Positions 29,725 through 48,190 of a stretch of 64,000 nt of DNA are shown piece after piece. The notes below the pieces were generated by a model. It ran no database searches and was not told the origin of the DNA. It saw only the letters and a program-made list of their open reading frames with translations. This DNA comes from Candidatus Syntropharchaeum butanivorans. Its GTDB lineage: Archaea; Halobacteriota; Syntropharchaeia; Syntropharchaeales; Syntropharchaeaceae. Made by a program: the position numbers and the translations under genes. The stretch is taken from NCBI GenBank assembly GCA_001766825.1, contig LYOR01000001.1, forward strand, positions 159,746 through 223,745. Reading direction: 5' to 3'. Positions within the stretch are counted from its first letter, which is position 1. The number at the start of each line of letters is the position of its first letter.

Positions 29725-30950
29725 ATGACCTCATACTCATGACCATAGCGGTTGTTCTCCTCCTTCTTGGTTCAGTTGTCTCATACAGGTATCCAAGGGC
29801 AGGATTTTTCAGCGCGGTTGCCGCGGTTATGACCGCATTTTTTGCCTGTGCGTCCCCTGAGTATGGTATCTTCATCCTTCTGATAGGCATACTGAACCTC
29901 ATCTCACTTGATGCTATTCGAAGCAAGATAAGAGGTATCGATTACGGGCTTGTCGGGTTTATGGTGATCGTTACGATGTATATATTCAACACAGCAGAAC
30001 TATCGCTCGTTCTGGCATCCTTTGTTCTTGTATCCGTTCCCACATACATTCTTGTAATGATGCGCGAGGATGAGATGGATGTTGAGGTTGGTGTGAAGTA
30101 CATCGTGTTCATGGTCATTGCCACCGTGCTATTTCTCACAGGTGCCATCATCCTTGCAAAAGGGATTGAGTCACTTTACGTGCTCGGGTATGTGGCACTC
30201 ATACTCGGTCTTGCCCTTGAGCTTGGGATAGCGCCGCTTCATGAGTGGGTCCCTGATATATTTGCGCGGGCAGATCCTGTGCCGCTTTCAATCATTGCAT
30301 CGATTGCAAAGATTGTGCCGTTTGTTGTAGCATTCAGGATACTTTACTCAACTGCAACCGAGCTTACAGGAGCTGTTATGGTATTCACAGCGCTTCTTGC
30401 AGCCACATCGATGTTTATCGGAAATATCGGGGCCCTGACATCCAGGGAGCATGGCAGGGTGCTCGGATACTCGACCGTTGCAAATATGGGTTATCTGATG
30501 TCATCCCTTCTTGCCGTTACAGAACCTGAGTTTCTCCCTCTTGCACTTGCAGGTGGGCTCCTGCTCCTCTTCTCAAATGCATGCGGGAAGATCGGGTTCT
30601 TCAGTGCGATGAAAGGGGAAGATGCCTATTCCCCGTTCACTTACATGCTCTCCTTCTCATTCCTAGGGGTTCCGCCGCTTATTGGTTTCTGGGGAAAGCT
30701 TTTTATCGCAATCACCCTGATAAGGATAGAGTACGTCTGGCTGGCCGTGATACTCCTGATCAACTCCGCTGTATCGATACCGTACTATCTGAGACTTGCG
30801 AAGGAGCTTGGGAAGGCGTGGCATACGAGTCTCACAGGCTTTATCGTGCTTGCTTCTGTCCTGATCACACTCCTTACGATCGCCCCGAACTGGTTTGTCG
30901 ATGGGATTGAGGCGCTTATGCCACTCATCTTGATTGAGATGGGAGGGTGA
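29721..30950 (+). CDS. fqoN: antiporter-like subunit N (NuoN/FpoN-like, short)
   Basis: 409-aa polytopic protein with APLHEWVPDIFARADPVPLSIIASIAK. Confidence 0.7.
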   Translation: MNDLILMTIAVVLLLLGSVVSYRYPRAGFFSAVAAVMTAFFACASPEYGIFILLIGILNLISLDAIRSKIRGIDYGLVGFMVIVTMYIFNTAELSLVLASFVLVSVPTYILVMMREDEMDVEVGVKYIVFMVIATVLFLTGAIILAKGIESLYVLGYVALILGLALELGIAPLHEWVPDIFARADPVPLSIIASIAKIVPFVVAFRILYSTATELTGAVMVFTALLAATSMFIGNIGALTSREHGRVLGYSTVANMGYLMSSLLAVTEPEFLPLALAGGLLLLFSNACGKIGFFSAMKGEDAYSPFTYMLSFSFLGVPPLIGFWGKLFIAITLIRIEYVWLAVILLINSAVSIPYYLRLAKELGKAWHTSLTGFIVLASVLITLLTIAPNWFVDGIEALMPLILIEMGG

Positions 30951-31305
30951 AAAGATGATGGAGAAAGCAGTTGTGATCGGTCTTGTCCTTGCGCTCTGTA
31001 TTCTTACAGATCTTGCCATCCTCACACTTGCAAAGCTTCTTCCAAGATACAACCTGACAGACCTCAAGGTATCAAGGTGGGAGGCCGGAAACTTGCCGGT
31101 GGGGCGCGCAAAGGGTCTGCTACCGATGCAGTATCTCAGCTTCATGTTTCTCTTTATGGCACTTGAACCGATAACCGTGGTCCTCTTCATCTTTGCTGCG
31201 CATCCCACCACCGGCTTCTACATCCTTCTGCTTATATCACTTCTTCTCATCCTGCCCACGGTGTATATCGGTTATAAGGCAGCGACGGAGGGGTTTGAAC
31301 GATGA
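30934..31305 (+). CDS. fqoA: complex I subunit A (NuoA/FpoA)
   Basis: About 116-123 aa (ATG at 30955 is likely). SRWEAGNLPVGRA...MQYLSFMFLFMALEP is the NuoA pattern. Confidence 0.7.
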   Translation: MRWEGEKMMEKAVVIGLVLALCILTDLAILTLAKLLPRYNLTDLKVSRWEAGNLPVGRAKGLLPMQYLSFMFLFMALEPITVVLFIFAAHPTTGFYILLLISLLLILPTVYIGYKAATEGFER

Positions 31306-33605
31306 ATGATGAGAAGAACAGGAACATAGATATCCTTCGCACAGGGCCGTTCTCCTGGCTGAAAAGGTGGTCTGCAAGATGGAGCCTCTGGCCATGCCAC
31401 TTTGTAACCTCGTGCTGTGGTGTTGAGCTTGCCCATGCATCAGGTTGTGGCTATGATATGGAGAGGCTCGGGACCCTGACAATGGGTATATCAAGGCAGA
31501 CGAATACGATCATCGTTGAGGGTACGATAACAAGAAAGATGGCACGAGCGCTCAGAATCGTATGGGAGCAGATGCCAGATCCGAAGTTCGTGAATGTGAT
31601 AGGCGCGTGTGGTCAGCGTGGGGGAATCTTCTGGAACAGCTACCATATCACACATCCACATACGATCGTTCCTGTTGATTTTTTCGTGCCCGGGTGCCCT
31701 GTAACCCCGGAGGCACTTATAAGAGGCGTGAGGGCACTGCAGAAGAAGATAGAGGGAGAGGATAGGGATACAATACGCTTTAAGAAGGCTAACCTGCAAT
31801 TTAAAGAGAGAAAGAAGAATATGCCCCCAACCTCCCCGAAGCTCCTTGCACCAACCCCGCTTATTAGAAACGACATTCCAGGCGGGGTGGGATGGGAGGA
31901 TGGGGATGAGCTTGTTGAGATGGTGAGATCGCGCCTCAAAGGTCTCACAGCTTCAATAACGGTAACAGATGAGAGGCGAATTACTATCAGAACAAGAGAA
32001 GATGAGATCAAGGAAATTGCAAAGAGGCTGTCTGAGATTGGCTTTGATCATGTAAAGAGTGTAAACCTGGTGGATGTACCACATGAGAAGAAGCTCATCC
32101 TTGAGTACGTGATCTCAGGTTACAGCAAGAGCCTCATGCCCATTCTGATCACGCTCACCGCGGATATCAGGGGTAAATATGACCTTCCAGGGCTCTCAGA
32201 TATCTGGCAGAGTGCCGATTACACAGAGCGTGAGCTGCAGGACCTCTTTGGTGTGAGGTTTGAGGGGAACTCATGGAATGAGATCTTCATGCTGGCACCT
32301 GACACCCCTCAATCCCCGCTCAGAAAGAGCTTCAGGCTTGAGGAAGAGGAATACATCCTCAAGGATGGCGTTCCACTTACACCCCACATTGATCCACCCT
32401 CTGACCTTAATGCCCCCCTCCCTTCCGGGGTGCTGGAGGAGGTTGAGGAGATGGGAGAGTACCTCGTCCTTGTAGGGCCCCACCATACAGGAAGCGGGCA
32501 TATGAGGTGGATCATGCGGCTTGATGGGGATATCATCACAGAGATCATCCCTGATCCAGGGTATGTCCACAGATCAATGGAGAAGATTGCAGAAAGCAGG
32601 CTTTACATCCAGAACATCCCGCTCTTTGAGCGGCTCTGCATCGTCGATCCTGTTAACATGAACCTCGGGTATGTACGTGCGATAGAGCGGGCACTCAAGG
32701 TTGATGTGCCTGAGCGGGCAGCATATATAAGAACGATGATGGCAGAACTCTCAAGGATCGGGTGCTTCATATACGACGCAGGGATATTCTCGCTCTTCAT
32801 GGGGCATTCAACAGGTTTCATGTATCTGTGGGCGATAAGGGAGATGCTCCTTGAGACCTTCTTGAGAATAACCGGGTCAAGATGCTCGCCTTCATTCATC
32901 CTGCCAGGGGGTGTGAGAAGAGACGTGGGGGATGATCTGCTTGATCTTATCGGAAACCTCACAACCGCTATTCTACCACGGTTTAAGAAGTTTGAGGATA
33001 TATTTGTGCGAAACCCGGTGCTTTTAGCAAGGGTCAAAGGGGTGGGAGTGCTCTCAAGGGATGAAGCCGTGAGGTATGGGATTGTGGGGCCATTCTTGAG
33101 GGCATCCGGGGTTGAGTATGATATCAGAAAGATTGAGCCGTATGATGCCTATGATAGCCTGGGGTGGGAGATGATAACAGCAGATGATGGCGACTCGCTT
33201 GTAAGGTTTCTTGTGAGGCTTGAGGAGATGCGAGAAAGTCTTGGCATCGTGAGCCAGTGTGTGGATGTGCTCAAAGGTATGAGAAAGGGGGATGTGATAA
33301 GTGAGGAGATACTCGGGGATTATCAGGAAGGCTCCCGGGACATAAGGGGATCTCTTTACAGGGTCTACGGTAACCTCGTTCTTCCAAGGGGTGAGTGGAC
33401 GGTGCTTACAGAGGCAGCAAGGGGGACACTCCTCTTCTCAATTATGAGTGATGGTGAGTCGAATGTGCCGTATCGTGTCAGGGTTATCACGCCAAGCTGG
33501 ATGAACCTGAGGGGGTTGATAGAGGCAGCAAGGGGTGAGAGGATGGCAGACTTCTGGGCGATATATGGTAGCTTTGGATACTTCCCGCCTGAAGCAGACA
33601 GGTGA
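31302..33605 (+). CDS. fused complex I subunits B-C-D (NuoB/NuoC/NuoD domains in one 767-aa polypeptide)
   Basis: The NuoB part has TSCCGVE, IGACGQRGG and VPGCPVTPE (the four N2-cluster Cys). The NuoC part has SADYTERELQDLFGVRFEGN. The NuoD part has VGPHHTGSGHMRWIMRLDGDIITEIIPDPGYVHRSMEKIAE. The reading frame is continuous. Confidence 0.85.
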   Translation: MNDEKNRNIDILRTGPFSWLKRWSARWSLWPCHFVTSCCGVELAHASGCGYDMERLGTLTMGISRQTNTIIVEGTITRKMARALRIVWEQMPDPKFVNVIGACGQRGGIFWNSYHITHPHTIVPVDFFVPGCPVTPEALIRGVRALQKKIEGEDRDTIRFKKANLQFKERKKNMPPTSPKLLAPTPLIRNDIPGGVGWEDGDELVEMVRSRLKGLTASITVTDERRITIRTREDEIKEIAKRLSEIGFDHVKSVNLVDVPHEKKLILEYVISGYSKSLMPILITLTADIRGKYDLPGLSDIWQSADYTERELQDLFGVRFEGNSWNEIFMLAPDTPQSPLRKSFRLEEEEYILKDGVPLTPHIDPPSDLNAPLPSGVLEEVEEMGEYLVLVGPHHTGSGHMRWIMRLDGDIITEIIPDPGYVHRSMEKIAESRLYIQNIPLFERLCIVDPVNMNLGYVRAIERALKVDVPERAAYIRTMMAELSRIGCFIYDAGIFSLFMGHSTGFMYLWAIREMLLETFLRITGSRCSPSFILPGGVRRDVGDDLLDLIGNLTTAILPRFKKFEDIFVRNPVLLARVKGVGVLSRDEAVRYGIVGPFLRASGVEYDIRKIEPYDAYDSLGWEMITADDGDSLVRFLVRLEEMRESLGIVSQCVDVLKGMRKGDVISEEILGDYQEGSRDIRGSLYRVYGNLVLPRGEWTVLTEAARGTLLFSIMSDGESNVPYRVRVITPSWMNLRGLIEAARGERMADFWAIYGSFGYFPPEADR

Positions 33606-33611
33606 TCCGGG

Positions 33612-34703
33612 ATGACTGGAACTGTTGAAGCACTGATAAATCTGATGATGGCAGATCAGGTGGCGATACCGCTTCTTGATCCGATCTTAAATATCCTCTA
33701 CGGGATACCGCTTCTCGGGCATCTACTTGCCCTCATCCTCTGGAAACCTCTCTTTGCCGCTCTGATCTGCCCTGGCTTTGCAACGCTCGGCGGACTTCTC
33801 ATGCTCCTCCCATGGATTGAACGGAAGCTTGTTGCAAGGATACAGTGGCGCATCGGTCCGCATGAGATACTGCCACAGATGGGTGGGGTGATCCAGCTTC
33901 TTGCAGACTCGTTGCGTTTTCTCTTTCAGGAGGTGATCGTGCATAGAGATGCCAAGCAGCCATACTTCCTTCAGTTCCCGGTATTATCCTTTATACCGGC
34001 ACTTCTTCCACTCCTGTTCATCCCTGCAGGTACCATCATCGCGATAGAGTCCCCCTATGGGGCTCAGATAGTACTTGCGATGGTGACCCTCTTCCCGCTC
34101 TTCATCCTGGGTCTTGGCTGGGCCTCAAACTCAAGGTTTGCGTACATTGGAACGGTAAGAGAGGCATTTGTCTATTTTGGTTATGAGATTGCCCTCATAG
34201 TTTCCGCTTTTGCGATGATCGTTCTCTACGGTACATCAGACCCTCTGGCAATCTCAGGTATGCAGCAGGTACCGGGAATAATCCTGAACCCGGTTGCAGC
34301 CCTTGCGTTCTTCATCGCTTCTGCAATGGCAACATCCCGCCTTCCTTTCGAGATTCCTGAGGCAGACCAGGAGCTTGCAGGAGGACCCCACGTTGAATAC
34401 TCAGGGATCCTCTTCGGGCTGATATATGTCATCTCATATGAGAAGGTCTACATCCTGAGCGGTCTTATGACCCTGCTGTTTCTGGGTGGGGGAAGCGGCC
34501 CTGAGATCCGGGTGTTGGGCGATCTTTCAGGTCTTATCTGGTTTATCCTCAAGACACTCCTTGTCATGATAGCCCTCATTGCGCTTCGCGCGATATACCC
34601 GAGATACAGGCTTGATCAGGCGCTCAGGATCGGATGGAACCCGGTCTTCACCTTAAGTACGATTGCAGTTGGGGTATCACTCATGGAGGTTCTACTCCTA
34701 TGA
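33612..34703 (+). CDS. fqoH: complex I subunit H (NuoH/FpoH)
   Basis: 363-aa polytopic protein. Contains ERKLVARIQWRIGP, the LADSLRF..KE-like LADSLRFLFQE, and PFEIPEADQELAGG (NuoH signature PFDxxEAExELxxG). Confidence 0.88.
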   Translation: MTGTVEALINLMMADQVAIPLLDPILNILYGIPLLGHLLALILWKPLFAALICPGFATLGGLLMLLPWIERKLVARIQWRIGPHEILPQMGGVIQLLADSLRFLFQEVIVHRDAKQPYFLQFPVLSFIPALLPLLFIPAGTIIAIESPYGAQIVLAMVTLFPLFILGLGWASNSRFAYIGTVREAFVYFGYEIALIVSAFAMIVLYGTSDPLAISGMQQVPGIILNPVAALAFFIASAMATSRLPFEIPEADQELAGGPHVEYSGILFGLIYVISYEKVYILSGLMTLLFLGGGSGPEIRVLGDLSGLIWFILKTLLVMIALIALRAIYPRYRLDQALRIGWNPVFTLSTIAVGVSLMEVLLL

Positions 34704-35428
34704 GAAAGGTTGTGGCACCAGATTACACCGTCTTTGAGCATGTAAAGCGGCATGTAGAGGCTGTTAAGACTGCAATTAGAGAGGCGATTATTCCAGAGAG
34801 TGTAACATGCTCCTACCCGAAAGAGCGGAGGAAGATGCCGGCATCTTTCAGGGGATATCTCATCTTCGACCCTGATCGATGCATCAGCTGCTTTGGGTGT
34901 GCTTTTATCTGCCCTGCAAATGCGATAAGGATGAAAGAAGCAGAGGATGGGAGGTACTACCCAACGATAGACTATGGAAAGTGCATTTTCTGCCATTTTT
35001 GCCTTGATTCATGCCCGGAGGGTGCGCTTAAACCGACAAAAATCCATGATGTTGCGTATAGAGACCTGGATAGGATGTTGACACTGACGGAGGAGATGAT
35101 CGAGCCTCCCGAGATCATAAGGGAGGATAAGAGGTATGTGGAGTATGTGATAGACGGGAGAGACCTTCATCTCAGGCGGGTGGATGGAGAGGATGAGCTT
35201 CTTGTTGATCTCCCGCCTCCCTCAAAGGTAGAGAGGATCGCCTCATGTATTGATCCTGAAAGCTGTACTGGGTGCAGGATATGTGAGGAGGTCTGTGAGC
35301 ACGGTGTGATCAGATCATCTGTGGAAGAAGATGGTGTGAGAATGGTTATTGACTCTGAACGGTGTACCGGGTGTGGGCTATGTGTTAAGGAGTGCTCGAT
35401 GAGGGTTCTAAGGCTTGTGCGGAGGTAA
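34700..35428 (+). CDS. fqoI: complex I subunit I (NuoI/FpoI) with an extra C-terminal 2x[4Fe-4S] ferredoxin domain
   Basis: 242 aa from an ATG overlapping the fqoH stop (ATGA). The NuoI core has CISCFGCAFICP and CIFCHFCLDSCP. The roughly 120-aa extension carries CTGCRICEEVCE and CTGCGLCVKECS. Confidence 0.8.
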   Translation: MRKVVAPDYTVFEHVKRHVEAVKTAIREAIIPESVTCSYPKERRKMPASFRGYLIFDPDRCISCFGCAFICPANAIRMKEAEDGRYYPTIDYGKCIFCHFCLDSCPEGALKPTKIHDVAYRDLDRMLTLTEEMIEPPEIIREDKRYVEYVIDGRDLHLRRVDGEDELLVDLPPPSKVERIASCIDPESCTGCRICEEVCEHGVIRSSVEEDGVRMVIDSERCTGCGLCVKECSMRVLRLVRR

Positions 35429-35432
35429 TTTG

Positions 35433-36470
35433 ATGGGAGGTTTACTTGAGTGGAAGGTCAGGGCTCCTGATAAGCCCATGAAGGATCGGCTTTACTTCGA
35501 TGGCCTGAAGGCAAATGTGATCGATACAGGGCTCTGTAGCAGGTGTCTCACATGTGCATGCATCTGCCCTGTCGATGGTATAAGGGTGGTGGACGATAAG
35601 GTTGATTTTCCAGACCGTGAGGAGCGATGCAGGGATTGTGGTGCATGTATAAGGGTCTGCCCGAGGTTCGATTATCGACCGAAATATGGGATGGGAGACT
35701 ATCTTGAGTTTACTGCAGCAAGATCTAAGCGTTTCTCAGGGCAGGATGGGGGGATGGTGACAGAGATCATGATCTCTGCAATCGAGATGGGTATGATTGA
35801 CCGTGGACTTTTTGTTGGAAGAGATGAAAGATGGAGGCCCCAGGTTTTCCATCTCCATGACTCCTCACAGCTTGAGGTTGGAACTCTCTCTGGAACAAAG
35901 TACACCTTTGCAACAGTCCTTAAAGAGCTTAAAAAGGCTGTTCTACTCACCAGAAATGGAGTGGGAGTTGTCGGGACGCCATGTATCGTGTCCGGTGTAA
36001 GAAAGCTTCAGATGGAGTTCCCGCTATTCCGTGATCGAGTGAGGCTTGTAATCGGTCTTTTCTGCACCGAGAACTTCCACTATGATGAGCTTATGAGCTT
36101 TCTTGAAAAGAAAGGTATCAAACCGGAGATGCTCATAAAGACAGACATCACAAAGGGCAGGTTCATTGCAACGATGGTCGACGGTGAGGTTAAGTTCAAG
36201 GTGAAGGAGCTTGAAGAGATACTCCCTTCAGGGTGCAGTGTCTGTACAGACTTCACAGCGGTTGAGTCTGATGTAAGCGTTGGGAGTGTGGGGAGTGAGC
36301 CAGGGTTCTCAACGGTTGTTGTGCGGGGAAAGAGTGCAGAGGAGGTTATAGCATACATCAGAGAGAAGGGGTATGCTGAGTTTGGTGAAGGGGATCCAGG
36401 TCAGCTTGACTTTCTTATCGACTACAAGGTTGGGAGGTTCTATGTTAAAACCAAGGATGATAAGGATTAA
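35433..36470 (+). CDS. fqoF: F420H2-oxidising input subunit (FqoF/FpoF, FrhB family) with an N-terminal 2x[4Fe-4S]
   Basis: 345 aa from an ATG preceded by GGAGGT. Contains CSRCLTCACICP and CRDCGACIRVCP, then the FrhB/FdhB blocks SGQDGGMVTEI, GTPCIVSGVRKL and GCSVCTDFTAVESDVSVGSVG. Confidence 0.8.
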   Translation: MGGLLEWKVRAPDKPMKDRLYFDGLKANVIDTGLCSRCLTCACICPVDGIRVVDDKVDFPDREERCRDCGACIRVCPRFDYRPKYGMGDYLEFTAARSKRFSGQDGGMVTEIMISAIEMGMIDRGLFVGRDERWRPQVFHLHDSSQLEVGTLSGTKYTFATVLKELKKAVLLTRNGVGVVGTPCIVSGVRKLQMEFPLFRDRVRLVIGLFCTENFHYDELMSFLEKKGIKPEMLIKTDITKGRFIATMVDGEVKFKVKELEEILPSGCSVCTDFTAVESDVSVGSVGSEPGFSTVVVRGKSAEEVIAYIREKGYAEFGEGDPGQLDFLIDYKVGRFYVKTKDDKD

Positions 36471-36523
36471 ATGAAAAAATCTTTAGTAAGGTGATACAGT
36501 CCCATGTAGGTAGGTGATATAAA

Positions 36524-36970
36524 TTGAAGGTAGATATAGTATATTGGGAAGATGAGATCGGGAAGAGTCTGAATAGAGTCTCAGTCGATGTCCATCCCTT
36601 TGGTATACAGGTTGGAATGAGGGCTGAGTGGCAGATGGCAGTTGCTGCAGAGGATAAAGAAGTGAAGGCACAGATGATGGTTCCGATTGATATAAAGCCG
36701 GTTGATATCCCGGCAAAAGCAATCGTTCTCCCATGCTTTTTCATGAGACACGCACTCGGTATCGTCACATCCTTGGCATCTCTCGGACGACCTCTGAGGG
36801 TTGAAGATGAGCGTAGAATATCTCAGGTCTTATTCTATCCGATTCAGGATGGTCTCATCCGGAAAGATGAGCTTCTGGCCGTGATAAATATCTTCCCTGC
36901 CGCAATGGAAGAACCGTTACCGAATAAAGAGGCTGTATACAGGTGGATGAGCCAGCGATATGGCGATTGA
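36524..36970 (+). CDS. hypothetical 148-aa protein (possibly a split molybdopterin-dinucleotide-binding/FwdD-like barrel)
   Basis: TTG start 7 nt after AGGTGA, with an 11-nt overlap onto mvhD. The pattern VSVDVHPFGIQVGMRAEWQMAV...VDIPAKAIVLPCFF weakly resembles the domain-IV barrel of FdhA/FwdD. Confidence 0.45.
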   Translation: MKVDIVYWEDEIGKSLNRVSVDVHPFGIQVGMRAEWQMAVAAEDKEVKAQMMVPIDIKPVDIPAKAIVLPCFFMRHALGIVTSLASLGRPLRVEDERRISQVLFYPIQDGLIRKDELLAVINIFPAAMEEPLPNKEAVYRWMSQRYGD

Positions 36971-37382
36971 GAGATGGGAGCCGAAGATCCTTGCATTTTG
37001 CTGTAACTGGTGCTCCTATGCCGGGGCAGATGTTGCAGGGGTTGAGCGGCGACAGATGCCCCCTTCCTTCAGGATCATAAGGGTCATGTGCTCGGGAAGT
37101 GTTGACCCATGCTGGGTGCTTGAGGCGTTTCTTGAGGGGGCAGACGGGGTGCTGATAACAGGATGTCACCCCGGGGAGTGCCATTATCTGAACACAAACT
37201 ACCACACAGCAAGGAGATACAGGCTTCTGAGAATATTTATTGAGGAGCTTGGACTCGAACCAGATCGTCTGAGGCTTGAATGGATCTCAGCAACCGAGGG
37301 GATTAAGTTTGCAGAGGTTATAAGGGATATGACAGAGAAGATCAGAGCACTTGGCCCAAGCAGGCTTGGGCCAGAGAGGTGA
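36960..37382 (+). CDS. mvhD: MvhD-type iron-sulfur protein (methyl-viologen-reducing hydrogenase delta subunit family)
   Basis: 140 aa. Contains KILAFCCNWCSYAGAD, VMCSG and ITGCHPGECHY. Confidence 0.85.
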   Translation: MAIERWEPKILAFCCNWCSYAGADVAGVERRQMPPSFRIIRVMCSGSVDPCWVLEAFLEGADGVLITGCHPGECHYLNTNYHTARRYRLLRIFIEELGLEPDRLRLEWISATEGIKFAEVIRDMTEKIRALGPSRLGPER

Positions 37383-37386
37383 GAAA

Positions 37387-38526
37387 ATGGGTAAGTGCTA
37401 CCTTGCATGGGCCAAGGACCCGGAAATCAGGCAAAAAGGTGGATCAGGAGGGTTTGTGACAGCTACACTTCTTGCAGCACTCAAGGAAGGGCTTGTTGAG
37501 AGGGTGCTTATCGTCAGGCGGATCGATGAGTTTGAAGGGGTACCCCTTCTCACAGATGATCCTGAGGAGGTCAAATCATGTAGCAGCGCACATCTTGCAG
37601 CCCCTCTCAACCTCTCATCATACATTCCCCCCGGGGAGAGGGTTGCTGTTACGGTGAAGCCCTGTGATGCAAGGGCGATCATCGAGCGTTCAAAGCGCAG
37701 GCAGATAGATCTTGAGGATATTTACATGGTCGGGCTCAACTGCGGCGGTACCTTCATGCCTGTTCGCACAATGGAGGCTGTTTCTGATCTATTTGGGCTT
37801 GATCCAGGAGATGTTTTGGGGTTTGAGGTGAGTAAGGGGAAGTTTTTAGTTGAGGCCCGAAGTGGGACATACACCCTGCCGATGGTTGAGCTTGAGCGGA
37901 TGGGATATGGTAGGCGTGACCCATGCAGGTACTGCAACATAAATATCCCTGTAATGGCAGACCTTGCATGTGGTGATGCCGGGGTTCCGCCAGGTATGCG
38001 TGCGACGTTCGTTGAGATCTTGACCGATAAGGGTGATGAGCTCTTTGAGGCCGGGATTAAGACCTCAATGATCGAGTTTGAGGAGGCGGGTGAAGAGGAG
38101 ATTGAGACCCGCGTAAGAACGGATCGGCGGATGTCTGAGGATGCGGATATGTGGTGGGACGAGCTATCCAGCATGATTGATGAGGTTGATCATCTCTCCT
38201 ACTACATCAACGAGCTTGGTAGATGCATCCACTGTGGGAGCTGTAAGATCGTATGCCCTGTGTGTGCCTGTAAGGATGATGCGAAGTGCCTTGACATGGG
38301 GCGGGAGGGTTACAGGATATCACTCTATAACCTCATCAGGCTCTTTCATCTCATGGACTCATGTATCGGGTGTGGTCAGTGTGAGGATGTCTGCCCGGCT
38401 GATATCCCGCTCACGATGATCCATCAGCGGTTTGAGAGAAGAATGGAGAAAGAGCTTGGATACAGGCCCGGTTTTGAGATGAGTAAACCGCCTTTACAGG
38501 AGCCTGAGCCTGGAGGTAAGGTTTAA
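37387..38526 (+). CDS. FrhB/FdhB-family F420-binding protein with a C-terminal 2x[4Fe-4S] (FdhB architecture)
   Basis: 379 aa from the ATG at 37387. Contains GGSGGFVTATL, KPCDARAI and ADLACGDAG. The C-terminus has CIHCGSCKIVCP and CIGCGQCEDVCP. Confidence 0.75.
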   Translation: MGKCYLAWAKDPEIRQKGGSGGFVTATLLAALKEGLVERVLIVRRIDEFEGVPLLTDDPEEVKSCSSAHLAAPLNLSSYIPPGERVAVTVKPCDARAIIERSKRRQIDLEDIYMVGLNCGGTFMPVRTMEAVSDLFGLDPGDVLGFEVSKGKFLVEARSGTYTLPMVELERMGYGRRDPCRYCNINIPVMADLACGDAGVPPGMRATFVEILTDKGDELFEAGIKTSMIEFEEAGEEEIETRVRTDRRMSEDADMWWDELSSMIDEVDHLSYYINELGRCIHCGSCKIVCPVCACKDDAKCLDMGREGYRISLYNLIRLFHLMDSCIGCGQCEDVCPADIPLTMIHQRFERRMEKELGYRPGFEMSKPPLQEPEPGGKV

Positions 38527-39620
38527 TGGAGTTCATTCAGAGCGTGTGCCCCGGGTGCTGCATCAACTGTGGCCTCTATATCGTAAGATCCGGTGAAGAG
38601 ATTAAGGTTGATTATCGCAAGCGTTCACCCGTAAATGAGGGAAAACTCTGTAAATTTGGGGTAGATCTTTCAAGATATTACGCAAAAGAGCGGCCTGAGC
38701 CAACTGTTGATGGGAAGGAGGTCGATCTTGAGACGGCGATCGGAGAGGCAGCAGAAAGGTTGAAAATGGCCAGTTCTGCAGAAACAGGCTTTTTGTGCAT
38801 GGGCAATTCGACAAATGAGGAGATACTTGCGTTCAAAAGGCTTGCAGAGAGCTTTGGGATTGAAAATATCGACTGTACCCTATCAAAGCATATTATCTCA
38901 ACCCCAGAAGACTTGAAGCCCACTCTCTCAGTTGGTGTTCCATTTAAGTCAATCGAGGAGGCAGACCGGATCATTCTCATCTCAATCAACCCATCCCTCC
39001 AGTATCCGCTCCTTCTCAGGAGGGTGATTCGTGCAGAAAAGAAGGGTGCTGAGGTGGTCATGCTCAATCCAGCAGAAAGTGAGAGTCTTGAGCTTGAGGG
39101 CGCGGTTGTAATCTCTGAGATCACCCAGAAGACAGATCCCATGCTCATAAAGATGATCCTTGAGGCCGGGAAGGATGCACGCTCAATCTGCTTCATGAAG
39201 CCGCATGCAAACCTCACAGGTGCGATGCTCCTCGGCTTTTACGGTGTTGACATATCTGAGAAGGTAAAGCTCGGTGAGATAAGGTCGCTCTTTCTTTTAG
39301 ATCCTGTGCCAGGTGATATGGATGATCTTCTTTCAGATCTTGATCTTCTCATTGTTCAGGCTGGAATGAAGACCAGGGTCAGTGAGGTTGCTGATATAAC
39401 GATCCCATCACCGCGCTTTTTTGAGCGGGAGGGTACGGTGGTGAATATTGAGGGCAGGGTGCTACCGGTCGGTGGAACGTCGAGAGCCGGTGTTGAATCG
39501 TTATTGAAGATCATGGGTGGAGAAATGGACTTTGAGGATGTGAGGCGCGGAGTATGGGAGGTGCTTGGGGTTGATGGGGCCAATGAGGATCTTATCGCAA
39601 TCACACAGGGGAGGCGTTGA
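38526..39620 (+). CDS. truncated molybdopterin-oxidoreductase-like protein (FdhA/FwdB N-terminal half), apparently without the catalytic Cys/Sec
   Basis: 364 aa. The N-terminal motif CPGCCINCG...(27 aa)...C is the MopB 4Fe-4S domain. The NEEILAFKRLAESFGIENIDCTLSKHI region aligns by eye with the FdhA active-site region but has Lys where Cys/Sec sits. There is no in-frame TGA, and the protein is about half the length of FdhA. Confidence 0.6.
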   Translation: MEFIQSVCPGCCINCGLYIVRSGEEIKVDYRKRSPVNEGKLCKFGVDLSRYYAKERPEPTVDGKEVDLETAIGEAAERLKMASSAETGFLCMGNSTNEEILAFKRLAESFGIENIDCTLSKHIISTPEDLKPTLSVGVPFKSIEEADRIILISINPSLQYPLLLRRVIRAEKKGAEVVMLNPAESESLELEGAVVISEITQKTDPMLIKMILEAGKDARSICFMKPHANLTGAMLLGFYGVDISEKVKLGEIRSLFLLDPVPGDMDDLLSDLDLLIVQAGMKTRVSEVADITIPSPRFFEREGTVVNIEGRVLPVGGTSRAGVESLLKIMGGEMDFEDVRRGVWEVLGVDGANEDLIAITQGRR

Positions 39621-39625
39621 CCCCC

Positions 39626-39949
39626 TCAATCATACTCCCGCCATGTGGCACCACACTCGGTGCACCTGAAAAACCGAACCTCGCTCTCATCAGCAGCTCT
39701 GAGTTGCCTCAGCCACCAGTAAGCGGTCCTGTTCCCGCATTCTGGACATTTAGCGATGGTTGTTGGAAGTCCCGCAGACTCTGAACCCTCGAGAATTGCA
39801 ATATCATCCCCTCTCCTCTCCTCTCTCGATACGAATGTGCCTGAGCCCTCCTCACGCTTCTTTGTGAACCCACACTTCCTGCACCTCATACCATCCGGTG
39901 TCGGGATCATCATGCTCCTGCACTCTGGACAGAACTCCATGATTTTCAC
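39626..39949 (-). CDS. tfs: transcription factor S (TFS / RpoM-like)
   Basis: 107 aa. N-terminal ribbon CPECRSMM...CRKCG. C-terminal ribbon CPECGNRTAYWW..QLRAADESEVRFFRCTECGATW with the acidic DE loop. Confidence 0.88.
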   Translation of the reverse strand: MKIMEFCPECRSMMIPTPDGMRCRKCGFTKKREEGSGTFVSREERRGDDIAILEGSESAGLPTTIAKCPECGNRTAYWWLRQLRAADESEVRFFRCTECGATWREYD

Positions 39950-43991: not shown

Positions 43992-45284
43992 GTGAAGTGG
44001 CTGAATAGAATTCTTGGCAGGAAAGAGCTACCATCCACAGTTGCCTTCGATGAGATAGATGCATGGCTTGAGAGCGCATCCAAATCGTTATTTTGGGATC
44101 TGAGCAGAAATGCCGATAGGTTATATGAAGAGATGAGGGCTGTATCTGAGAGGCTTGAGGAGAGCATCAATATCCTCCAGAACGCTGAGCCAGATGGGAG
44201 CATGCCGGCTCATATCACAAAAATAGGGTTGCAAAACCGTGATAAGATGGTAAAACACCTTCATTCGCTGGGTGAGAAAATCTCAATCCCGACACAGACC
44301 GATTACAGGACGATTTTATCCTTTTATAAGGTGGCGGCATCCAGCATAGAGCTTGTTCTCGGCAAGTTATCGAAAAATATCTACTATGTCCGATCACTAT
44401 TTCCTGATGAGGTCAAAGAGGTTACTTCAGATCTTAATCAATTGAAAACAATCCTTAACCAGCTTGTCACACCAATTAAGGGGAAAGAAAGCCGGATTAT
44501 GAGTTTAGAACAGGCGATAGAGTTAGTGCGAGATATAAAGGATCTAAAATCGCGGATAGACAAGGAGCGGGAGAAAGTTTGCGAGCAGGAGGGGGCGTAT
44601 TCCGCACTCAAAAGGAGAATCGAGATGGAAGGCGAAAGACTTAGAAGGATTGAAGAAGGGGAGGAATGGAAGAGGTTCAAAGAGCTTGAAGGGGAGCTAT
44701 CATCATTAGAAATGGAATTAAACGCGCTGGAATTGGAGATTAACCAGTTGTTTTCCCCAATTAACAAAGCGCTGAACCTCTTGAAGAAGCGGGATGAGGC
44801 CGGGCGATATGCGCTCACTCCCGATGAGAGAAGAGCGATATCTTCAATCCTATCCTCTCCAGTTCAAGCGTTTGATGATGAAGAGATCAGGGGGTATCTT
44901 CTCACTGTAAAGCACATCATCGAGAGGGATGCATCCTTTCTGAAGGATAGAAGGAGGGATAAGACACTGAGATGGATAGATCATCTGCTAAATACCGGGC
45001 TTTCCTCTATAAGGGGGAGGCGTGAGATTTTACGATCAAGAGTTGAAGAGCTAAAAGGTGAGCTCTCGGATCTGACGATACTTGAGGATAGAAAGAAGAT
45101 CGAAGAATCAATTCTCTCAGGTGAGGGGCAGCTCATTCAATTGCAGGAAGGGATAGACCGATCAAAAAGATACCTCGTTTCACTGGAGGAGGAGATCAGA
45201 GAGAGGAAAGAGCTGCTGTTAGAGGCTTTGGAAGGTGTTGCAGGCAGGAAGATTGATGTTAAATTTTGGTTTTTCAGATGCTAA
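43992..45284 (+). CDS. coiled-coil protein of unknown function
   Basis: 430-aa ORF (GTG start). Long heptad-like Glu/Lys/Leu-rich stretches, with no catalytic motif. Confidence 0.5.
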   Translation: MKWLNRILGRKELPSTVAFDEIDAWLESASKSLFWDLSRNADRLYEEMRAVSERLEESINILQNAEPDGSMPAHITKIGLQNRDKMVKHLHSLGEKISIPTQTDYRTILSFYKVAASSIELVLGKLSKNIYYVRSLFPDEVKEVTSDLNQLKTILNQLVTPIKGKESRIMSLEQAIELVRDIKDLKSRIDKEREKVCEQEGAYSALKRRIEMEGERLRRIEEGEEWKRFKELEGELSSLEMELNALELEINQLFSPINKALNLLKKRDEAGRYALTPDERRAISSILSSPVQAFDDEEIRGYLLTVKHIIERDASFLKDRRRDKTLRWIDHLLNTGLSSIRGRREILRSRVEELKGELSDLTILEDRKKIEESILSGEGQLIQLQEGIDRSKRYLVSLEEEIRERKELLLEALEGVAGRKIDVKFWFFRC

Positions 45285-45290
45285 CCCGAT

Positions 45291-45434
45291 ATGAGAGGGA
45301 TTGCCCGGAGGGATGAAGCTTATGAGAAGCTTCTTGGCTGGATAATACTCAGGCACATCCTGTCTTTTCTTATCGGGTGCTTAGTTGGTTTTATCCTCGG
45401 CATCCTTGTAGCATTCTGTATCTGGAGGCCCTGA
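45291..45434 (+). CDS. possible 47-aa single-helix membrane peptide
   Basis: Own translation: MRGIARRDEAYEKLLGWIILRHILSFLIGCLVGFILGILVAFCIWRP. It starts 6 nt after the preceding stop and is below the track length cut-off. Confidence 0.25.
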   Translation: MRGIARRDEAYEKLLGWIILRHILSFLIGCLVGFILGILVAFCIWRP

Positions 45435-45558
45435 ATCTGCGATTTTTTGAAGCTATGCTATAGTTGTAATATGAACAAAATCTTATCAGCCATCACTGAT
45501 CCATTGAAAATACCCCCTTCTGACCCATAGGTACTCATACCATGCCACCAAGATTGAA

Positions 45559-45762
45559 TTGGTGGTCTTGATGGAAGTACCGAAGGAATATATCTCAACT
45601 TTTAATCGTAGAATAGAGAAACAGCTATACAGTGAGCTGAGAAGAGATTACTCATTCCCGCAAGCAGTATGCAGATCTTTATCTGAGCTCTTTACATCCT
45701 ACCTGGATCTGTATTCAGTTCAGAGAGATGAGGGGCAGATAATCTTCCATGCAGCATTATGA
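45559..45762 (+). pseudogene. orphan N-terminal fragment of an IS-associated archaeal protein (DUF1670-like, from memory)
   Basis: 67-aa ORF ending prematurely. Another frame downstream reads GEAIMRYIKDCQLAKL. It sits among other transposase debris, and the family assignment is tentative. Confidence 0.3.
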
Positions 45763-46043
45763 GTACACAGATATAGAAAGAAAGACTGAACACAGTGGAG
45801 AAGCTATCATGCGCTACATCAAGGATTGTCAGTTAGCAAAGCTAACAACCTCCTCAGCGAAGCTGAGTGAGTTGCTCGACTGATTATACTTAGGAGAACT
45901 TTGATTTACCCCTCCCCTCACCGGTTGAACCTAAACCAGACCATCTCATGAATAATAAGTGCCACTGACGCCAGTCTCCTTCTCAATCCCCTCTATCACA
46001 CCTGTTTTTTCCTTTCTGATCCGGAATCTGACGATAGCTTACG

Positions 46044-46307
46044 CTAAGCCGCCTCCCGGTGCCTGATCGTACGAAGATGATATAGATCAAAGGCAAACGC
46101 GGTGAATATCATCTTTACCGCAACCCTTGCTCTGGTTGTGACCCTGGCATGACCTGCACTGAAGACTGTCTTCATCACGGCAAAAGCCCGCTCGATCCGG
46201 GCTCTCTTCTTATTTATCCGCCTGTTTCTAAGCTCATCCCTGATATCCAGGGGATGCCCGCGGGTTGCCCGTTTCATCGTAGGCTTTTCCAAAAGCCCAC
46301 ACGGCAA
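46044..46307 (-). pseudogene. C-terminal fragment of an IS5/IS1182-type DDE transposase
   Basis: RRINKKRARIERAFAVMKTVF...RVTTRARVAVKMIFTAFAFDLYHL matches the conserved C-terminal R-x-x-(I/V)-E-R-x-F block of IS5-family transposases. The N-terminal two thirds are missing, and a hairpin cluster lies at their expected position. Confidence 0.6.
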
Positions 46308-46310
46308 AAT

Positions 46311-46399
46311 GTCCTGCCTTCGGCAGGACGAGTCCGATCGAAGATCGGACGCAGGGGTAGAGGGGATGCAATCCCCCTTATGAGGCGGATGCGCCTCAT
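46311..46399. repeat. cluster of four consecutive perfect stem-loops, forming the left boundary of the low-GC cassette
   Basis: H1 gtcctgcc-ttc-ggcaggac (46311-46329). H2 gtccgatc-gaa-gatcggac (46332-46350). H3 ggggat-gca-atcccc (46362-46376). H4 atgaggcg-gatg-cgcctcat (46380-46399). Confidence 0.85.
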
Positions 46400-46470
46400 C
46401 CAGGAGGATTTTTGATCTGCCTGTTAATTTGATGGGCTCTGGGAGTGGGTGGGTTTTTCAAAGTTCTCGA

Positions 46471-47604
46471 TTAATACACTGTATGCTCCTCTATAACTTC
46501 TTTATAAAGACTTAGGATTTTACTCATGAAAACATCAACGCTAAATAAGTTTTCAACTCGCTTTCTCACTTCCTGCCTCCATGTATCAGGATAAGAGAGA
46601 CTCTCTATAGCCTTTTTGAGAGATGTTGATGATCCGGCCCGAAATACAGCACCATATTCCCCGATGGCTTCTACGGATCCACTATTGCTGCTCACAATAC
46701 ATGGTGTCCCACATGCCATCGATTCAAGAACGGTATAAGGAAACGGATCATAGCGAGAAGGCAATATCGTTGCGATCGCATTGGAATAATAGCGCTTTAG
46801 ATCTTCGTCAGATATATTTGACTTGATCATAATGTTATTTTGCTTTTTACTGAGATCACAGAGTGCTCTGGAATATTTGCTGAGCTTCCCATATTTATAA
46901 ATAGAACTTATAACCACGAACTTCTTATCTTGTAACTTCTTCATCACATCAAACAACTCATAAAACCCCTTTCTCTTATCCAATCGTCCAACGTAGAGAA
47001 AATAATCTCCAGTTGGGTCATCTGTCGTTGGCTTGTATAACTCTGTGTCAATACCGTTGTGGATCACTCTAATCTTATCAGCAGGCACGTTATACTCTGA
47101 TTGCAACTCTCTTTTGATCAGATCTGAAACAGCCACTATCTTCGCCAACTTATCGATCTTTTTTGTCAGCACATTTTTCTCTGAGTTAAGTGCATGATAT
47201 TCGGTCCTCATCTTTTCTAAATTTGTTACATACTTACATTCTGTAGCCGCAACCCCATGGAACGTGATCACAGTCGGCTTCTCTGAAACACTCAGGTAGT
47301 CCACTATATGAACAGTGTTAGAATGGATTAGGTCATAAAGAATCTCAAGCAGTTTTACTTTATCCCTGATATGCTTTCTTGTACGGTAATATCTGATCAC
47401 AGGTAGTATCGTTTCATTCAATCCTCTGATGTGTGGCATATTGAGAAGAAAAGAGAAGAAAGTATTTTTGCCCACTCTCATCGCAGGTCCTTTATGCAAG
47501 ACATCTACGTCCAGATTTTCTTGATTCAGAAAATACTCGGCGTATCTTGTTGACCCAGAGGCTCTTTTAGCAACACTATCCTCGTGAATAAGTAGAATTC
47601 TCAT
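46471..47604 (-). CDS. GT4-family glycosyltransferase (glycosyl transferase group 1)
   Basis: MRILLIHEDS... with the C-terminal ILPSRYDPFPYTVLESMACGTPCIVS (the E-x7-E region of GT4). It is AT-rich relative to its neighbours. The track ORF extends to 47628. Confidence 0.8.
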   Translation of the reverse strand: MRILLIHEDSVAKRASGSTRYAEYFLNQENLDVDVLHKGPAMRVGKNTFFSFLLNMPHIRGLNETILPVIRYYRTRKHIRDKVKLLEILYDLIHSNTVHIVDYLSVSEKPTVITFHGVAATECKYVTNLEKMRTEYHALNSEKNVLTKKIDKLAKIVAVSDLIKRELQSEYNVPADKIRVIHNGIDTELYKPTTDDPTGDYFLYVGRLDKRKGFYELFDVMKKLQDKKFVVISSIYKYGKLSKYSRALCDLSKKQNNIMIKSNISDEDLKRYYSNAIATILPSRYDPFPYTVLESMACGTPCIVSSNSGSVEAIGEYGAVFRAGSSTSLKKAIESLSYPDTWRQEVRKRVENLFSVDVFMSKILSLYKEVIEEHTVY

Positions 47605-47605
47605 C

Positions 47606-47926: not shown

Positions 47927-48096
47927 CTTGCTAACCCCTATTTCTCCATCTTTTCTCCTCGCCTATTTCATTTAAAGTGCACCTTGATAAGTTTTTCACA
48001 TGCTTCAAATACCTCCCTTGCGGCTGAAATAGTATCTTTGGTATCCTCTTTATCGAAGAACTCATTTCAAAACCCTCAGCACCATCCTTATACATA

Positions 48097-48144: not shown

Positions 48145-48190
48145 TACGCTTTCGAGCAAGTCTTCCGGCTTTTGGCATGAGATTTTGGCA

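Follow-up and report, generated by a model that had tools for sequence, protein, structure and literature searches.

The mvhD, fdhB-like and short elpA-like genes that follow the fqo operon of Candidatus Syntrophoarchaeum butanivorans probably encode an electron arm of the Elp type for soluble HdrABC, free of molybdenum and dependent on F420, judging from their homology with solved complexes. They form a module with a preceding DUF22-family gene in the 64,000-nucleotide stretch of contig LYOR01000001.1 that we analyzed (hereafter the window; Table 1). Each of the three proteins matches its counterpart chain in the Elp–Hdr (8rvu_D/E/F) and Fdh–Hdr (7bkb_D/E/F) complexes. The association of MvhD with an FdhB-like subunit and a molybdopterin-free FdhA-like subunit is an already characterized composition, that of the ElpCBA arm of Elp–Hdr; the initial annotation of this DNA, which knew of no characterized complex so composed, had overlooked ElpABC–HdrABC of Methanothermobacter marburgensis, which has been purified and assayed and whose structure is solved (PMC12350162; Nature 2025; PDB 8RVU, 8RVV, 8RVY).

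Table 1. Features of the fqo operon and the adjoining module (window coordinates).
Feature	Position	Strand	Details
Upstream fqo operon	25480-36470	+	Pfam and NCBIfam; public contigs with identical gene calls
fqoF–DUF22 spacer	36471-36523	+	53 nt; Shine–Dalgarno-like GGTGAT 5 nt 5' of the TTG start
DUF22-family ORF (ORF1)	36524-36970	+	148 aa, TTG start, first gene of the module
MvhD/ElpC-like [2Fe–2S] connector subunit (ORF2)	36960-37382	+	140 aa
FdhB/ElpB-like F420-binding flavoprotein with Fe–S clusters (ORF3)	37387-38526	+	379 aa
Short ElpA-like protein (ORF4)	38526-39620	+	364 aa, FdhA-derived

An ORF check of the window reproduced the four same-strand genes described initially after fqoF, together with their junctions: the 53-nt spacer separates the fqoF stop from the DUF22 ORF, which overlaps mvhD by 11 nt (36960-36970), and a 4-nt gap (37383-37386) and a 1-nt overlap (at 38526) follow. 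A Shine–Dalgarno-like GGTGA/GGAGGT motif lies 5' of all four starts, which are identical in public gene calls; the length of the FdhB-like protein is counted from an ATG, and a TTG at 37351 would yield 391 aa. The operon upstream comprises fqoJ-like, fqoK, three antiporter-like subunits, fqoA, a fused fqoBCD (767 aa), fqoH, fqoI and fqoF. In the supplements of PMC11543930, the locus tags run from SBU_000209 (fqoJ) through SBU_000220 (DUF22) to SBU_000221 (MvhD) and SBU_000222 (FdhB).

The second gene encodes an MvhD, as initially proposed: the protein matches Pfam FlpD over its full length (5e-54, positions 1-123 of 123) as well as MvhD (5odc_D, 2.7e-53), 7bkb_F (3.3e-47) and ElpC (8rvu_F, 6.5e-47), and is, like ElpC, an MvhD homologue carrying the [2Fe–2S] connector cluster. 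Among the rows listed in the PMC11543930 table, which covers alkyl-CoM-reductase-enriched families only, SBU_000221 is the sole S. butanivorans entry in its MvhD protein family. Pfam also agrees with the assignment of the third gene to the FrhB/FdhB type with two C-terminal ferredoxin motifs (FrhB_FdhB_N, FrhB_FdhB_C and two C-terminal Fer4 motifs). Its product scores alike against true FdhB (9t1s_M, 7.5e-75) and ElpB (8rvu_E, 1.6e-74), with 7bkb_E at 8e-72, all over nearly the full length. The 8rvu_E match spans residues 4-373, and the protein is, in common with ElpB, homologous to FdhB, with a predicted F420/FAD site and Fe–S clusters.

Our alignments support the view that the 364-aa FdhA-like protein is a non-catalytic, molybdopterin-free scaffold, because it has no Mo ligand and no domain IV and its MGD-binding inserts are deleted, in line with the loss of catalysis suspected initially. 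Pfam detects Molybdop_Fe4S4 and a partial Molybdopterin domain (two fragments) and no match to Molydop_binding (PF01568). The cluster motif reads C8-x2-C11-x3-C15-x26-C42, so that the initial annotation had recognized the 4Fe–4S motif correctly and misjudged its last spacing by one residue (x27); all four cysteines of this N-terminal site are invariant. In three independent alignments made with HMMER to the FdhA structures 9t1s_L, 7qv7_S and 7bkb_D, and in two made with MAFFT, Lys121 falls in the Mo/W-ligand Cys/Sec column, which corroborates the earlier by-eye alignment, and His122 is retained: K121-H122 lies opposite the (Sec/Cys)-His of these structures and the C-H of full-length FdhA-type proteins. 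The Cys/Sec-His-Arg active site is not intact, since K225 also replaces the catalytic Arg, the RGQNNVQGA motif here being K225-P-H-A-N229-L-T-G232-A. Some 300 residues that would belong to the pterin-binding fold are absent along with the entire domain IV, the C-terminal barrel (columns 207-300, 350-385 and all past column 560 of alignment A4). The ORF holds no internal TGA, as stated before, and its stop is itself TGA (39618-39620). The protein thus resembles ElpA in apparently keeping the [4Fe–4S] site and losing both the molybdopterin site and the Fdh catalytic residues.

These data bear on the GenBank label of the module genes, 'formate dehydrogenase subunit alpha/beta'. A genuine F420-dependent formate dehydrogenase, which could support interspecies formate transfer, would account for this label, for the partial NCBIfam Fdh-alpha match (85.7 bits versus a cutoff of 666) and for an FdhB-like subunit indistinguishable in score from true FdhB. 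We regard it as extremely improbable given that the 364-aa protein has neither the Cys/Sec-His ligand (K121) nor the catalytic Arg (K225) nor a complete bis-MGD fold with domain IV, that a ligand-column Cys is absent from every aligned member of its clade, and that the homologous ElpAB is devoid of Fdh activity and molybdopterin. The genes are therefore mislabelled.

The AF2 model of the 364-aa protein has a pLDDT of 94.1 and matches NuoG, NfnC, FdhA and ElpA (8rvy_D; E 1.3e-15, TMt 0.74) in Foldseek. The best matches are complex-I NuoG/75-kDa and NfnC/StnC (E 3e-19 to 1e-17, TMq 0.75-0.81), with TMq values of 0.77-0.81 for complex-I NuoG versus 0.68 for ElpA. The fold is hence at least as NuoG-like as ElpA-like and fqo is the immediate neighbour, two observations that count against an Elp-type arm. 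NuoG/75-kDa (C-terminal domain) and NfnC/StnC of the bifurcating Nfn-ABC/Stn-ABC (9bov_A, 8oh5_C) are likewise cofactor-less MopB scaffolds of Fe–S electron-transfer complexes, but they are only 15-19% identical to the 364-aa protein, which starts with Molybdop_Fe4S4, is without their N-terminal 2Fe–2S/4Fe–4S domains and derives from FdhA/ElpA-like proteins by phylogeny. The NCBIfam NuoG match (87 bits versus a cutoff of 470) covers model positions 212-413 only.

In a neighbour-joining tree, the 364-aa protein nests in an 'ElpA-like' clade (200/200 bootstraps) hosted by Methanosarcinales, ANME and alkane oxidizers, and canonical ElpA of class I methanogens forms a separate clade (181/200). It shares 22% identity with the ElpA-type protein P0127, and its best PDB sequence match is a true FdhA rather than ElpA; the match to 7bkb_D is at 2.3e-17 and that to 8rvu_D at 4.7e-11. 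Non-orthology to canonical ElpA and this best match also weigh against an Elp-type arm. The true orthologous clade corresponds to the hdrCBA-mvhD-fdhB-like-'FdhA/ElpA-like' clusters of Methanosarcinales, ANME-2, ANME-3, GoM-Arc1 and Methanolobus (PMC9012536, Chadwick et al. 2022), termed 'ElpA-like' in Nomura et al. 2025. These share the mvhD-fdhB-elpA-like order, the invariant cluster cysteines and the lack of a ligand-column Cys; unlike the Syntrophoarchaeum form, which sits behind fqoF and is missing domain IV and an internal segment, their proteins are mostly 440-600 aa with a reduced domain IV, most of the loci directly follow hdrA, and a DUF22 gene is absent.

Our reference set comprised 72 loci, 66 of them with a called ElpA-like ORF. 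The strict mvhD-fdhB-elpA-like order occurs in 48/66; hdrA lies within six genes upstream of the trio in 44/66 and hdrC-hdrB-hdrA upstream in 27/66. Linkage to fqo was found in 1/66 and in the genus Syntrophoarchaeum only, where it is complete on the three contigs that extend far enough upstream (the window, L005 and L077); the conservation that the initial annotation had asked for thus holds, but within this genus. The trio of ANME-1 relatives is isolated, adjoining neither hdr nor fqo. The traits specific to Syntrophoarchaeum are the position of the trio behind fqo rather than hdr, the DUF22 gene ahead of it and the loss of domain IV.

The module could instead be an accessory peripheral arm of Fqo, in which the ElpA-like protein would substitute structurally for the molybdopterin-like domain of NuoG and the FdhB-like and MvhD subunits would provide a second electron entry or exit, possibly linking Hdr chemistry directly to quinone reduction. 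The same-strand position 53 nt after fqoF without a terminator-like site, the complete linkage on three contigs, the NuoG/75-kDa structural matches and the lack of a NuoEFG module in Fqo speak for this arrangement. We nevertheless consider it unlikely, as the linkage is confined to one genus, the proteins have their origin in a clade linked to Hdr, MvhD joins donor modules to HdrA in solved complexes, F420H2 input already occurs via FqoF, and the N-terminal NuoG Fe–S domains are missing; no Fqo or Fpo structure is on record as a docking template. We know of no complex I-type enzyme that uses MvhD. Of the two roles put forward initially, working with the Fqo complex therefore has syntenic support confined to Syntrophoarchaeum, and docking on HdrA is favoured by the comparative evidence, namely homology to Hdr donor arms and the trio lying behind hdrA in 44/66 related loci.

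The spacer also argues against an Fqo arm, since it contains an A-rich, TATA-like stretch suggesting that the module may be transcribed from a promoter of its own. An AAAA-TTTATAAT-like element is conserved in the alignment of the three spacers (weaker in the window). We found no oligo-T or hairpin terminator in the 53-nt spacer and no plus-strand terminator-like site; given the TATA-like element, the module may or may not be co-transcribed with fqo.

The short elpA-like gene might be taken for a decaying pseudogene of a longer ElpA-like/FdhA gene, as its product falls 110-230 aa short of most clade members and ends in the linker preceding domain IV, at the TGA codon. This explanation is effectively refuted: the short trio is found in no fewer than five Syntrophoarchaeum lineages, at a protein identity of 54-62%, and its reading frames are intact and its cluster cysteines invariant, which indicates maintenance by selection; the predicted fold is also very confident. 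Readthrough of the stop adds 33 codons that lie antisense to the TFS gene and are unrelated, yielding nothing homologous, and no domain IV remnant was found in the window. Because 54-62% identical orthologues share it, the truncation is old, which disposes of the recent truncation considered initially; the loss of domain IV in Syntrophoarchaeum is secondary.

The 148-aa ORF, initially listed as unknown, belongs to DUF22 (PF01629, 3.5e-29) and is no orphan. Its orthologues are 148 aa long and 61-69% identical with many invariant columns, and the gene overlaps mvhD on all three contigs. AF2 gives a poor model (pLDDT 56, mainly beta strands), which yields weak dUTPase-like fold matches only. The suggestion that this protein supplies the missing beta-barrel did not hold, as no profile similarity was found to domain IV of longer relatives (hhalign probability 0.5%) and family members elsewhere lie in unrelated neighbourhoods, with radical SAM and kinase genes or with ATP-grasp and hydantoinase-like genes. 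The DUF22 gene is an addition particular to the Syntrophoarchaeum lineage; although it is conserved and translationally coupled, nothing in the Elp system corresponds to it, a further observation against an Elp-type arm.

The lineages in which DUF22 was inserted are, at the loci examined, also those that lost domain IV, as they would be if the module were a free-standing soluble F420-dependent oxidoreductase (for example, a ferredoxin:F420 oxidoreductase or an enzyme with some other partner or substrate) that recruited DUF22 as a new subunit when domain IV was lost. The isolated trio of ANME-1 relatives, the conservation of DUF22 and its gene overlap, and the elution of M. marburgensis ElpAB by itself as a 0.2-MDa fraction (PMC12350162) agree with such an enzyme. 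It is improbable in our view, because that fraction has neither Hdr nor Fdh activity, and DUF22 has homologues in unrelated neighbourhoods and is dissimilar to domain IV. To our knowledge, MvhD has no role outside HdrA-containing complexes.

We thus return to an arm for HdrABC. Most likely, it would reduce F420 or oxidize F420H2 while docked on HdrABC in trans; docking would have to be in trans because no hdr gene adjoins the trio in Syntrophoarchaeum or ANME-1 relatives, which counts against the assignment. Profile scans (Pfam/NCBIfam) revealed no Hdr gene among the window ORFs that they covered, in accordance with the absence of HdrA noted initially. By homology with Elp–Hdr and Fdh–Hdr, the FdhB-like subunit would exchange hydride between F420 and its own FAD, and electrons would pass via its [4Fe–4S] clusters and the MvhD [2Fe–2S] cluster to HdrA's bifurcating FAD, in either direction, with the FdhA-derived subunit acting as a non-catalytic scaffold that retains its N-terminal [4Fe–4S] cluster alone. 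In a butane oxidizer, confurcation would convert HS-CoM, HS-CoB and reduced ferredoxin to CoM-S-S-CoB and 2 F420H2, and the F420H2 would then be reoxidized by Fqo, which would explain why the module adjoins, and is perhaps co-expressed with, the fqo operon. The analysis establishes the homology, the catalytic-site loss, the position in the tree and the synteny pattern; we infer that HdrABC, whose genes lie elsewhere in the genome, is the physical partner, which way the electrons flow and why the module is linked to fqo.

The S. butanivorans models presented in PMC11543930 contain an F420-reducing HdrABC–FrhB confurcation step followed by Fqo, and the same source lists hdrABC elsewhere in the genome with an FrhB4 gene adjoining it. 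FrhB4 could alternatively fill the role of F420 arm, which counts against the Elp-type assignment. An Elp-like arm might also be tethered to the Fqo peripheral arm, perhaps via DUF22 and the scaffold lacking domain IV, or bridge HdrABC to Fqo. Although decidedly unlikely, this would wire CoM-SH/CoB-SH oxidation to menaquinone reduction and proton pumping. The arm would then stand in functionally for HdrDE, which is missing, and serve a complex I-like enzyme as an input module of a new type.

ElpABC–HdrABC of M. marburgensis couples F420H2 oxidation to Hdr bifurcation with an ElpA free of molybdopterin (PMC12350162). It shares with the module an MvhD homologue, an FdhB-like F420/FAD subunit, a molybdopterin-free FdhA homologue keeping its [4Fe–4S] cluster, and a fourth small gene (ElpX). 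The gene order differs, X-A-B-C versus DUF22-C-B-A, as do the fqo neighbour and the butane-oxidizing host, in which electron flow is presumably reversed. A canonical Elp-type cluster, L079 (its ElpA matches 8rvu_D at 1.6e-32), encodes at the ElpX position a protein of 121 aa that has no Pfam match and is unrelated to DUF22 by profile (hhalign probability 0.5%). In hydrogenotrophic methanogens, Elp co-occurs with Hmd and is induced under nickel limitation (PMC12350162), which is not expected in a butane oxidizer. Methanospirillum hungatei FdhAB-MvhD-HdrABC(-Fmd) (PDB 7BKB-7BKE) has the same donor-arm architecture, but its FdhA is full length, contains molybdopterin and a Cys-His active site, and oxidizes formate; the complex can also use F420H2, via FdhB.

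The four genes downstream of fqoF lie as the initial annotation described them: the ORF coordinates place the first 53 nt after fqoF, the first and second overlap by 11 nt, the second and third lie 4 nt apart, and the third and fourth overlap by 1 nt. Every start is preceded by a Shine–Dalgarno-like motif and is identical to that used in public gene calls; GenBank OFV66927–OFV66930 (Candidatus Syntrophoarchaeum butanivorans) are the exact four module proteins, and published supplementary tables (PMC11543930) list fqoJ as SBU_000209 and the DUF22, MvhD and FdhB genes as SBU_000220, SBU_000221 and SBU_000222. The upstream fqo operon is complete, with a J-like subunit, K, three antiporter-like subunits, A, a fused BCD, H, I and F. 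The single FqoBCD polypeptide also occurs in two other Syntrophoarchaeum loci, L005 and L077, and one gap separates two antiporter-like genes of the otherwise tightly packed operon. Downstream, the elpA-like gene converges with a TFS/RpoM-type gene, beyond which lie DNA methylase, CbiA-family ATPase and EF-2 genes. The 5 nt between the elpA-like TGA and the TFS/RpoM-type stop leave essentially no space for a terminator of either transcript.

Features of the window discussed in the text
Feature	Coordinates	Strand	Evidence
16S site of FISH probe pSBU699	6811-6828		perfect match
Gap within fqo operon, 218 nt	27788-28005		no ORF ≥90 aa
FqoBCD fusion, 767 aa	31302-33605	+	Oxidored_q6, Complex1_30kDa and Complex1_49kDa domains
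Spacer before DUF22 ORF	36471-36523
DUF22 ORF (ORF1), 148 aa, TTG start	36524-36970	+	Pfam PF01629, 3.5e-29
FlpD/MvhD ORF (ORF2), 140 aa	36960-37382	+	Pfam full-length match, 5e-54
FdhB-like ORF (ORF3), 379 aa	37387-38526	+	Pfam FrhB_FdhB_N, FrhB_FdhB_C; two ferredoxin motifs
FdhA-like (elpA-like) ORF (ORF4), 364 aa	38526-39620	+	Pfam Molybdop_Fe4S4, Molybdopterin-domain fragments
TGA of ORF4	39618-39620	+
TFS/RpoM-type gene	39626-39949	-
430-aa ORF	43992-45284		no Pfam match
Low-G+C stretch	44000-50000		G+C 0.42-0.44 vs about 0.50
GT4 glycosyltransferase	46471-47628	-
BcrAD/BadFG-family ATPase	52819-54048	+	9.5e-67
McrC homologue	56969-57880	+	MCR_C, 2.9e-97

HMMER alignments of the 364-aa protein to three solved FdhA chains place Lys121 on the Sec/Cys ligand column and His122 on the conserved His, in agreement with the alignment first made by eye, and a MAFFT alignment with full-length FdhA-type proteins (C-A-R-L-C-H) gives the same position for K121. 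MAFFT further indicates that the catalytic-Arg motif RGQNNVQGA is replaced with K225-PHANLTGA and that the protein is devoid of two large internal segments and of the entire C-terminal domain IV, the Molydop_binding barrel of FdhA; the Pfam scan of the protein found no Molydop_binding domain. The 4Fe-4S motif reported earlier is present, but its last spacing is x26 rather than x27; its cluster cysteines C8, C11, C15 and C42 are invariant across the aligned relatives. As judged from these alignments, the protein is predicted to be non-catalytic. The deposited annotation reads 'formate dehydrogenase alpha/beta', yet with Lys at the ligand column a true formate dehydrogenase is highly improbable. 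Selenocysteine readthrough of the terminal TGA was also considered and rejected, as it leads through 33 junk codons to a stop. Studies of alkane-oxidising consortia weigh formate as an interspecies electron carrier via annotated fdh genes (for example PMC10322722); a set unable to oxidise formate would leave one candidate route fewer in Ca. S. butanivorans, and this reading corrects a misleading annotation.

AlphaFold2 modeled the 364-aa protein with very high confidence (pLDDT 94.1, pTM 0.93), and Foldseek matched this model to molybdopterin-oxidoreductase folds only. Among the matches are cofactor-less NfnC/StnC, complex-I NuoG (TMq 0.77–0.81), FdhA of an Hdr complex (0.73) and ElpA, which is the best size-matched match (8rvy_D, E 1.3e-15, TMq 0.68, TMt 0.74).

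The resemblance to ElpA extends to the whole trio formed by the MvhD, FdhB-like and FdhA-like proteins. The initial annotation knew of no characterised complex with this composition; structures of the purified Methanothermobacter marburgensis ElpABC–HdrABC complex already exist (8RVU, 8RVV and 8RVY; Nomura et al., Nature 2025, PMC12350162) and show the same make-up, the 'FdhA', 'FdhB' and MvhD-related chains being 342, 380 and 136 aa long. The Elp chains match the window FdhA-like, FdhB-like and MvhD proteins at 4.7e-11, 1.6e-74 and 6.5e-47, respectively. F420H2 is oxidised at the FAD of ElpB, and ElpA, a shortened FdhA, has neither molybdopterin nor Fdh activity; phylogeny and length tell apart 'ElpA', the class II methanogens' 'ElpA-like' proteins and FdhA (PMC12350162). 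The composition of the trio is thus already known, and the Syntrophoarchaeum form is a variant of it.

When 1.84 billion representative proteins were searched exhaustively by HMMER with the 364-aa protein, only 25 relatives scored below 1e-30, all 25 missing the ligand-column Cys. One is 332 aa long and 62% identical, and the rest (418–563 aa, 35–46% identical) carry an additional C-terminal domain of ~100 aa that aligns with FdhA domain IV and weakly matches Molydop_binding. In a neighbour-joining tree built on 442 columns and bootstrapped 200 times, the short Syntrophoarchaeum proteins and the ElpA-like clade that includes them were each recovered in 200/200 replicates and canonical ElpA in 181/200, the long forms alone being monophyletic in 12/200. 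The short form is therefore nested among long ElpA-like proteins, and we infer that its loss of domain IV was secondary and took place independently of canonical ElpA. Its identity to an ElpA-type protein is only 22%. FdhA would thereby have been reduced to a cofactor-less scaffold a second time and independently, within the ElpA-like clade, in parallel with canonical ElpA and NuoG. The truncation is not recent, as it is common to orthologues of 54–62% identity in at least five lineages, which makes a decaying pseudogene a very remote prospect; no domain IV remnant was detected in the window (tblastn gave nothing below E 0.1 and hmmsearch nothing). Chadwick et al. 2022 (PMC9012536) stated that ANME FdhA homologues of Hdr clusters keep the Mo-ligating cysteine. 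Across the sampled clade, ANME-2 and Methanolobus loci included, Cys is missing from the K121 column in every member (alignment A1), and a nearby Cys (C117 in the window protein) is conserved in some members only; the published statement might concern another paralogue or this neighbouring Cys.

We scanned gene neighbourhoods in one genome per species, yielding 72 loci from Methanosarcina, Methanolobus, Methanimicrococcus, ANME-1, ANME-2, GoM-Arc1/Ethanoperedens/Argoarchaeum, Methanofastidiosia and Syntrophoarchaeum, and counted on the 66 in which an ElpA-like ORF was called. The strict order mvhD–fdhB–elpA-like occurs in 48/66 loci, hdrA lies at most six genes upstream in 44/66 and hdrC–hdrB–hdrA is found in 27/66, with Hdr identities checked by Pfam (CCG domains; double Pyr_redox_2 plus Fer4). 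ANME-1 loci hold the trio by itself, and Fqo core subunits occur only in L005 among these 66. The fqo linkage is kept in Syntrophoarchaeum relatives, the order fqo...F–DUF22–mvhD–fdhB–short elpA-like being found in S. butanivorans, L005 and L077, the last a second lineage from the S. butanivorans culture metagenome; two further Syntrophoarchaeum loci contain DUF22 and the trio at a contig end (L086) or the trio (L085). As noted before, HdrA is missing from the window, with no Hdr gene among the ORFs scanned. The Hdr-linked clade and the Syntrophoarchaeum pattern therefore indicate that the module descends from an Hdr-associated operon, and we infer from gene order that it was relocated behind fqo in the genus Syntrophoarchaeum only.

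In other Syntrophoarchaeum lineages, a block of genes follows the module (L005 11077-14664; L085 2755-5566; L086 2989-6175). Its conserved proteins of 374 and ~182 aa gave no Pfam match at E ≤ 1e-5 in L005, where the next gene is McrA-like (alkyl-CoM reductase alpha), divergent and 627 aa long. The TFS, methylase, CbiA and EF-2 genes stand in place of this block in S. butanivorans. An archaeal-type pair of fdhB-like and elpA-like genes (549 aa, 37% identity) in a contig binned as 'Desulfobacteria bacterium' (DATKXZ010000053.1) probably reflects misbinning from an ANME–SRB consortium, a transfer being less likely.

These homologies and neighbourhoods suggest that the trio is probably an Elp-type F420-linked arm, docking via MvhD on an HdrABC encoded elsewhere. 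In a butane oxidiser, the Hdr–Elp arm would run as a confurcation yielding F420H2, which Fqo would then oxidise. A published model of butane oxidation assumes exactly an 'Hdr-FrhB' step and an Fqo step, but assigns the former to a different FrhB paralogue encoded beside hdrABC (PMC11543930); this hypothetical confurcation thereby gains a homology-based candidate with a structurally characterised homologue. Genomic coupling of F420H2 production (Hdr–Elp) and consumption (Fqo) is also suggested. We consider direct docking of the module on Fqo unlikely; a search for a solved Fqo/Fpo structure for a docking test found none, returning just complex I/NDH and soluble enzymes of the FrhB family.

The module may be transcribed via fqo readthrough, from its own promoter, or both, as judged from three sequences. 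Aligned across the window, L005 (7955-7990) and L077 (7824-7879), the spacer holds a conserved, A-rich and TATA-like element, AAAA-TTTATAAT in L005 and L077, ~35 nt upstream of the DUF22 start and degenerate or weaker in S. butanivorans; this element could act as an internal archaeal promoter. No terminator-like feature was found in the 53-nt spacer. Hairpin-terminator and sigma-70-type promoter scans are uninformative for an archaeon.

The 148-aa DUF22 protein is strongly conserved within the genus. The earlier proposal that it supplies the missing beta-barrel finds no support: hhalign of the DUF22 profile against domain IV of 21 long relatives gave a probability of 0.5%. AlphaFold2 modelled it poorly (pLDDT 56), largely as beta strands with a C-terminal helix, and Foldseek on this model yielded weak dUTPase-like matches only (E 0.07–0.4, TM about 0.33), with no molybdopterin-binding barrel among them. 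Nor is it ElpX, as it has no similarity to the ElpX-position protein of L079, a canonical Elp-type cluster. Near Elp-like or Hdr genes, hmmsearch of six-frame translations of 79 loci found DUF22 in Syntrophoarchaeum only. ANME-1, Methanolliviera and ANME-2 have more distant DUF22 proteins, whose genes neighbour either radical-SAM plus kinase genes or ATP-grasp, hydantoinase-like and PRK genes, with no Hdr, Elp or Fqo genes adjacent. A radical-SAM gene and an AAA_17 kinase gene flank DUF22 in ANME-1 (L080, L081); in Ca. Methanolliviera (L082 8001-9307, L083 6649-7955), a tandem DUF22 pair directly follows PRK-family kinase, ATP-grasp and Hydantoinase_A-family genes. These neighbours and the weak dUTPase-like folds hint at a nucleotide- or cofactor-related family role; a literature search on DUF22, PF01629 and COG1417 found nothing relevant. 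A free-standing F420 oxidoreductase that includes DUF22 has a low probability. DUF22 may be a newly recruited accessory subunit, because its insertion and domain IV loss share lineages among the loci examined; this uncharacterised protein deserves testing as such, and together with the fqo linkage it is a testable oddity of the module.

The window also holds a 16S–tRNA(Ala)–23S operon, whose 16S gene perfectly matches the published species-specific FISH probe pSBU699 and shows two mismatches to the Ca. S. caldarius probe. The BcrAD/BadFG-family ATPase and McrC homologue flank leucyl-tRNA synthetase and could function in the activation or assembly of Mcr/Acr, at a distance from any mcr operon. 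The low-G+C stretch, which holds the 430-aa ORF, the GT4 glycosyltransferase and a homocysteine-biosynthesis gene, may be a variable or acquired region.
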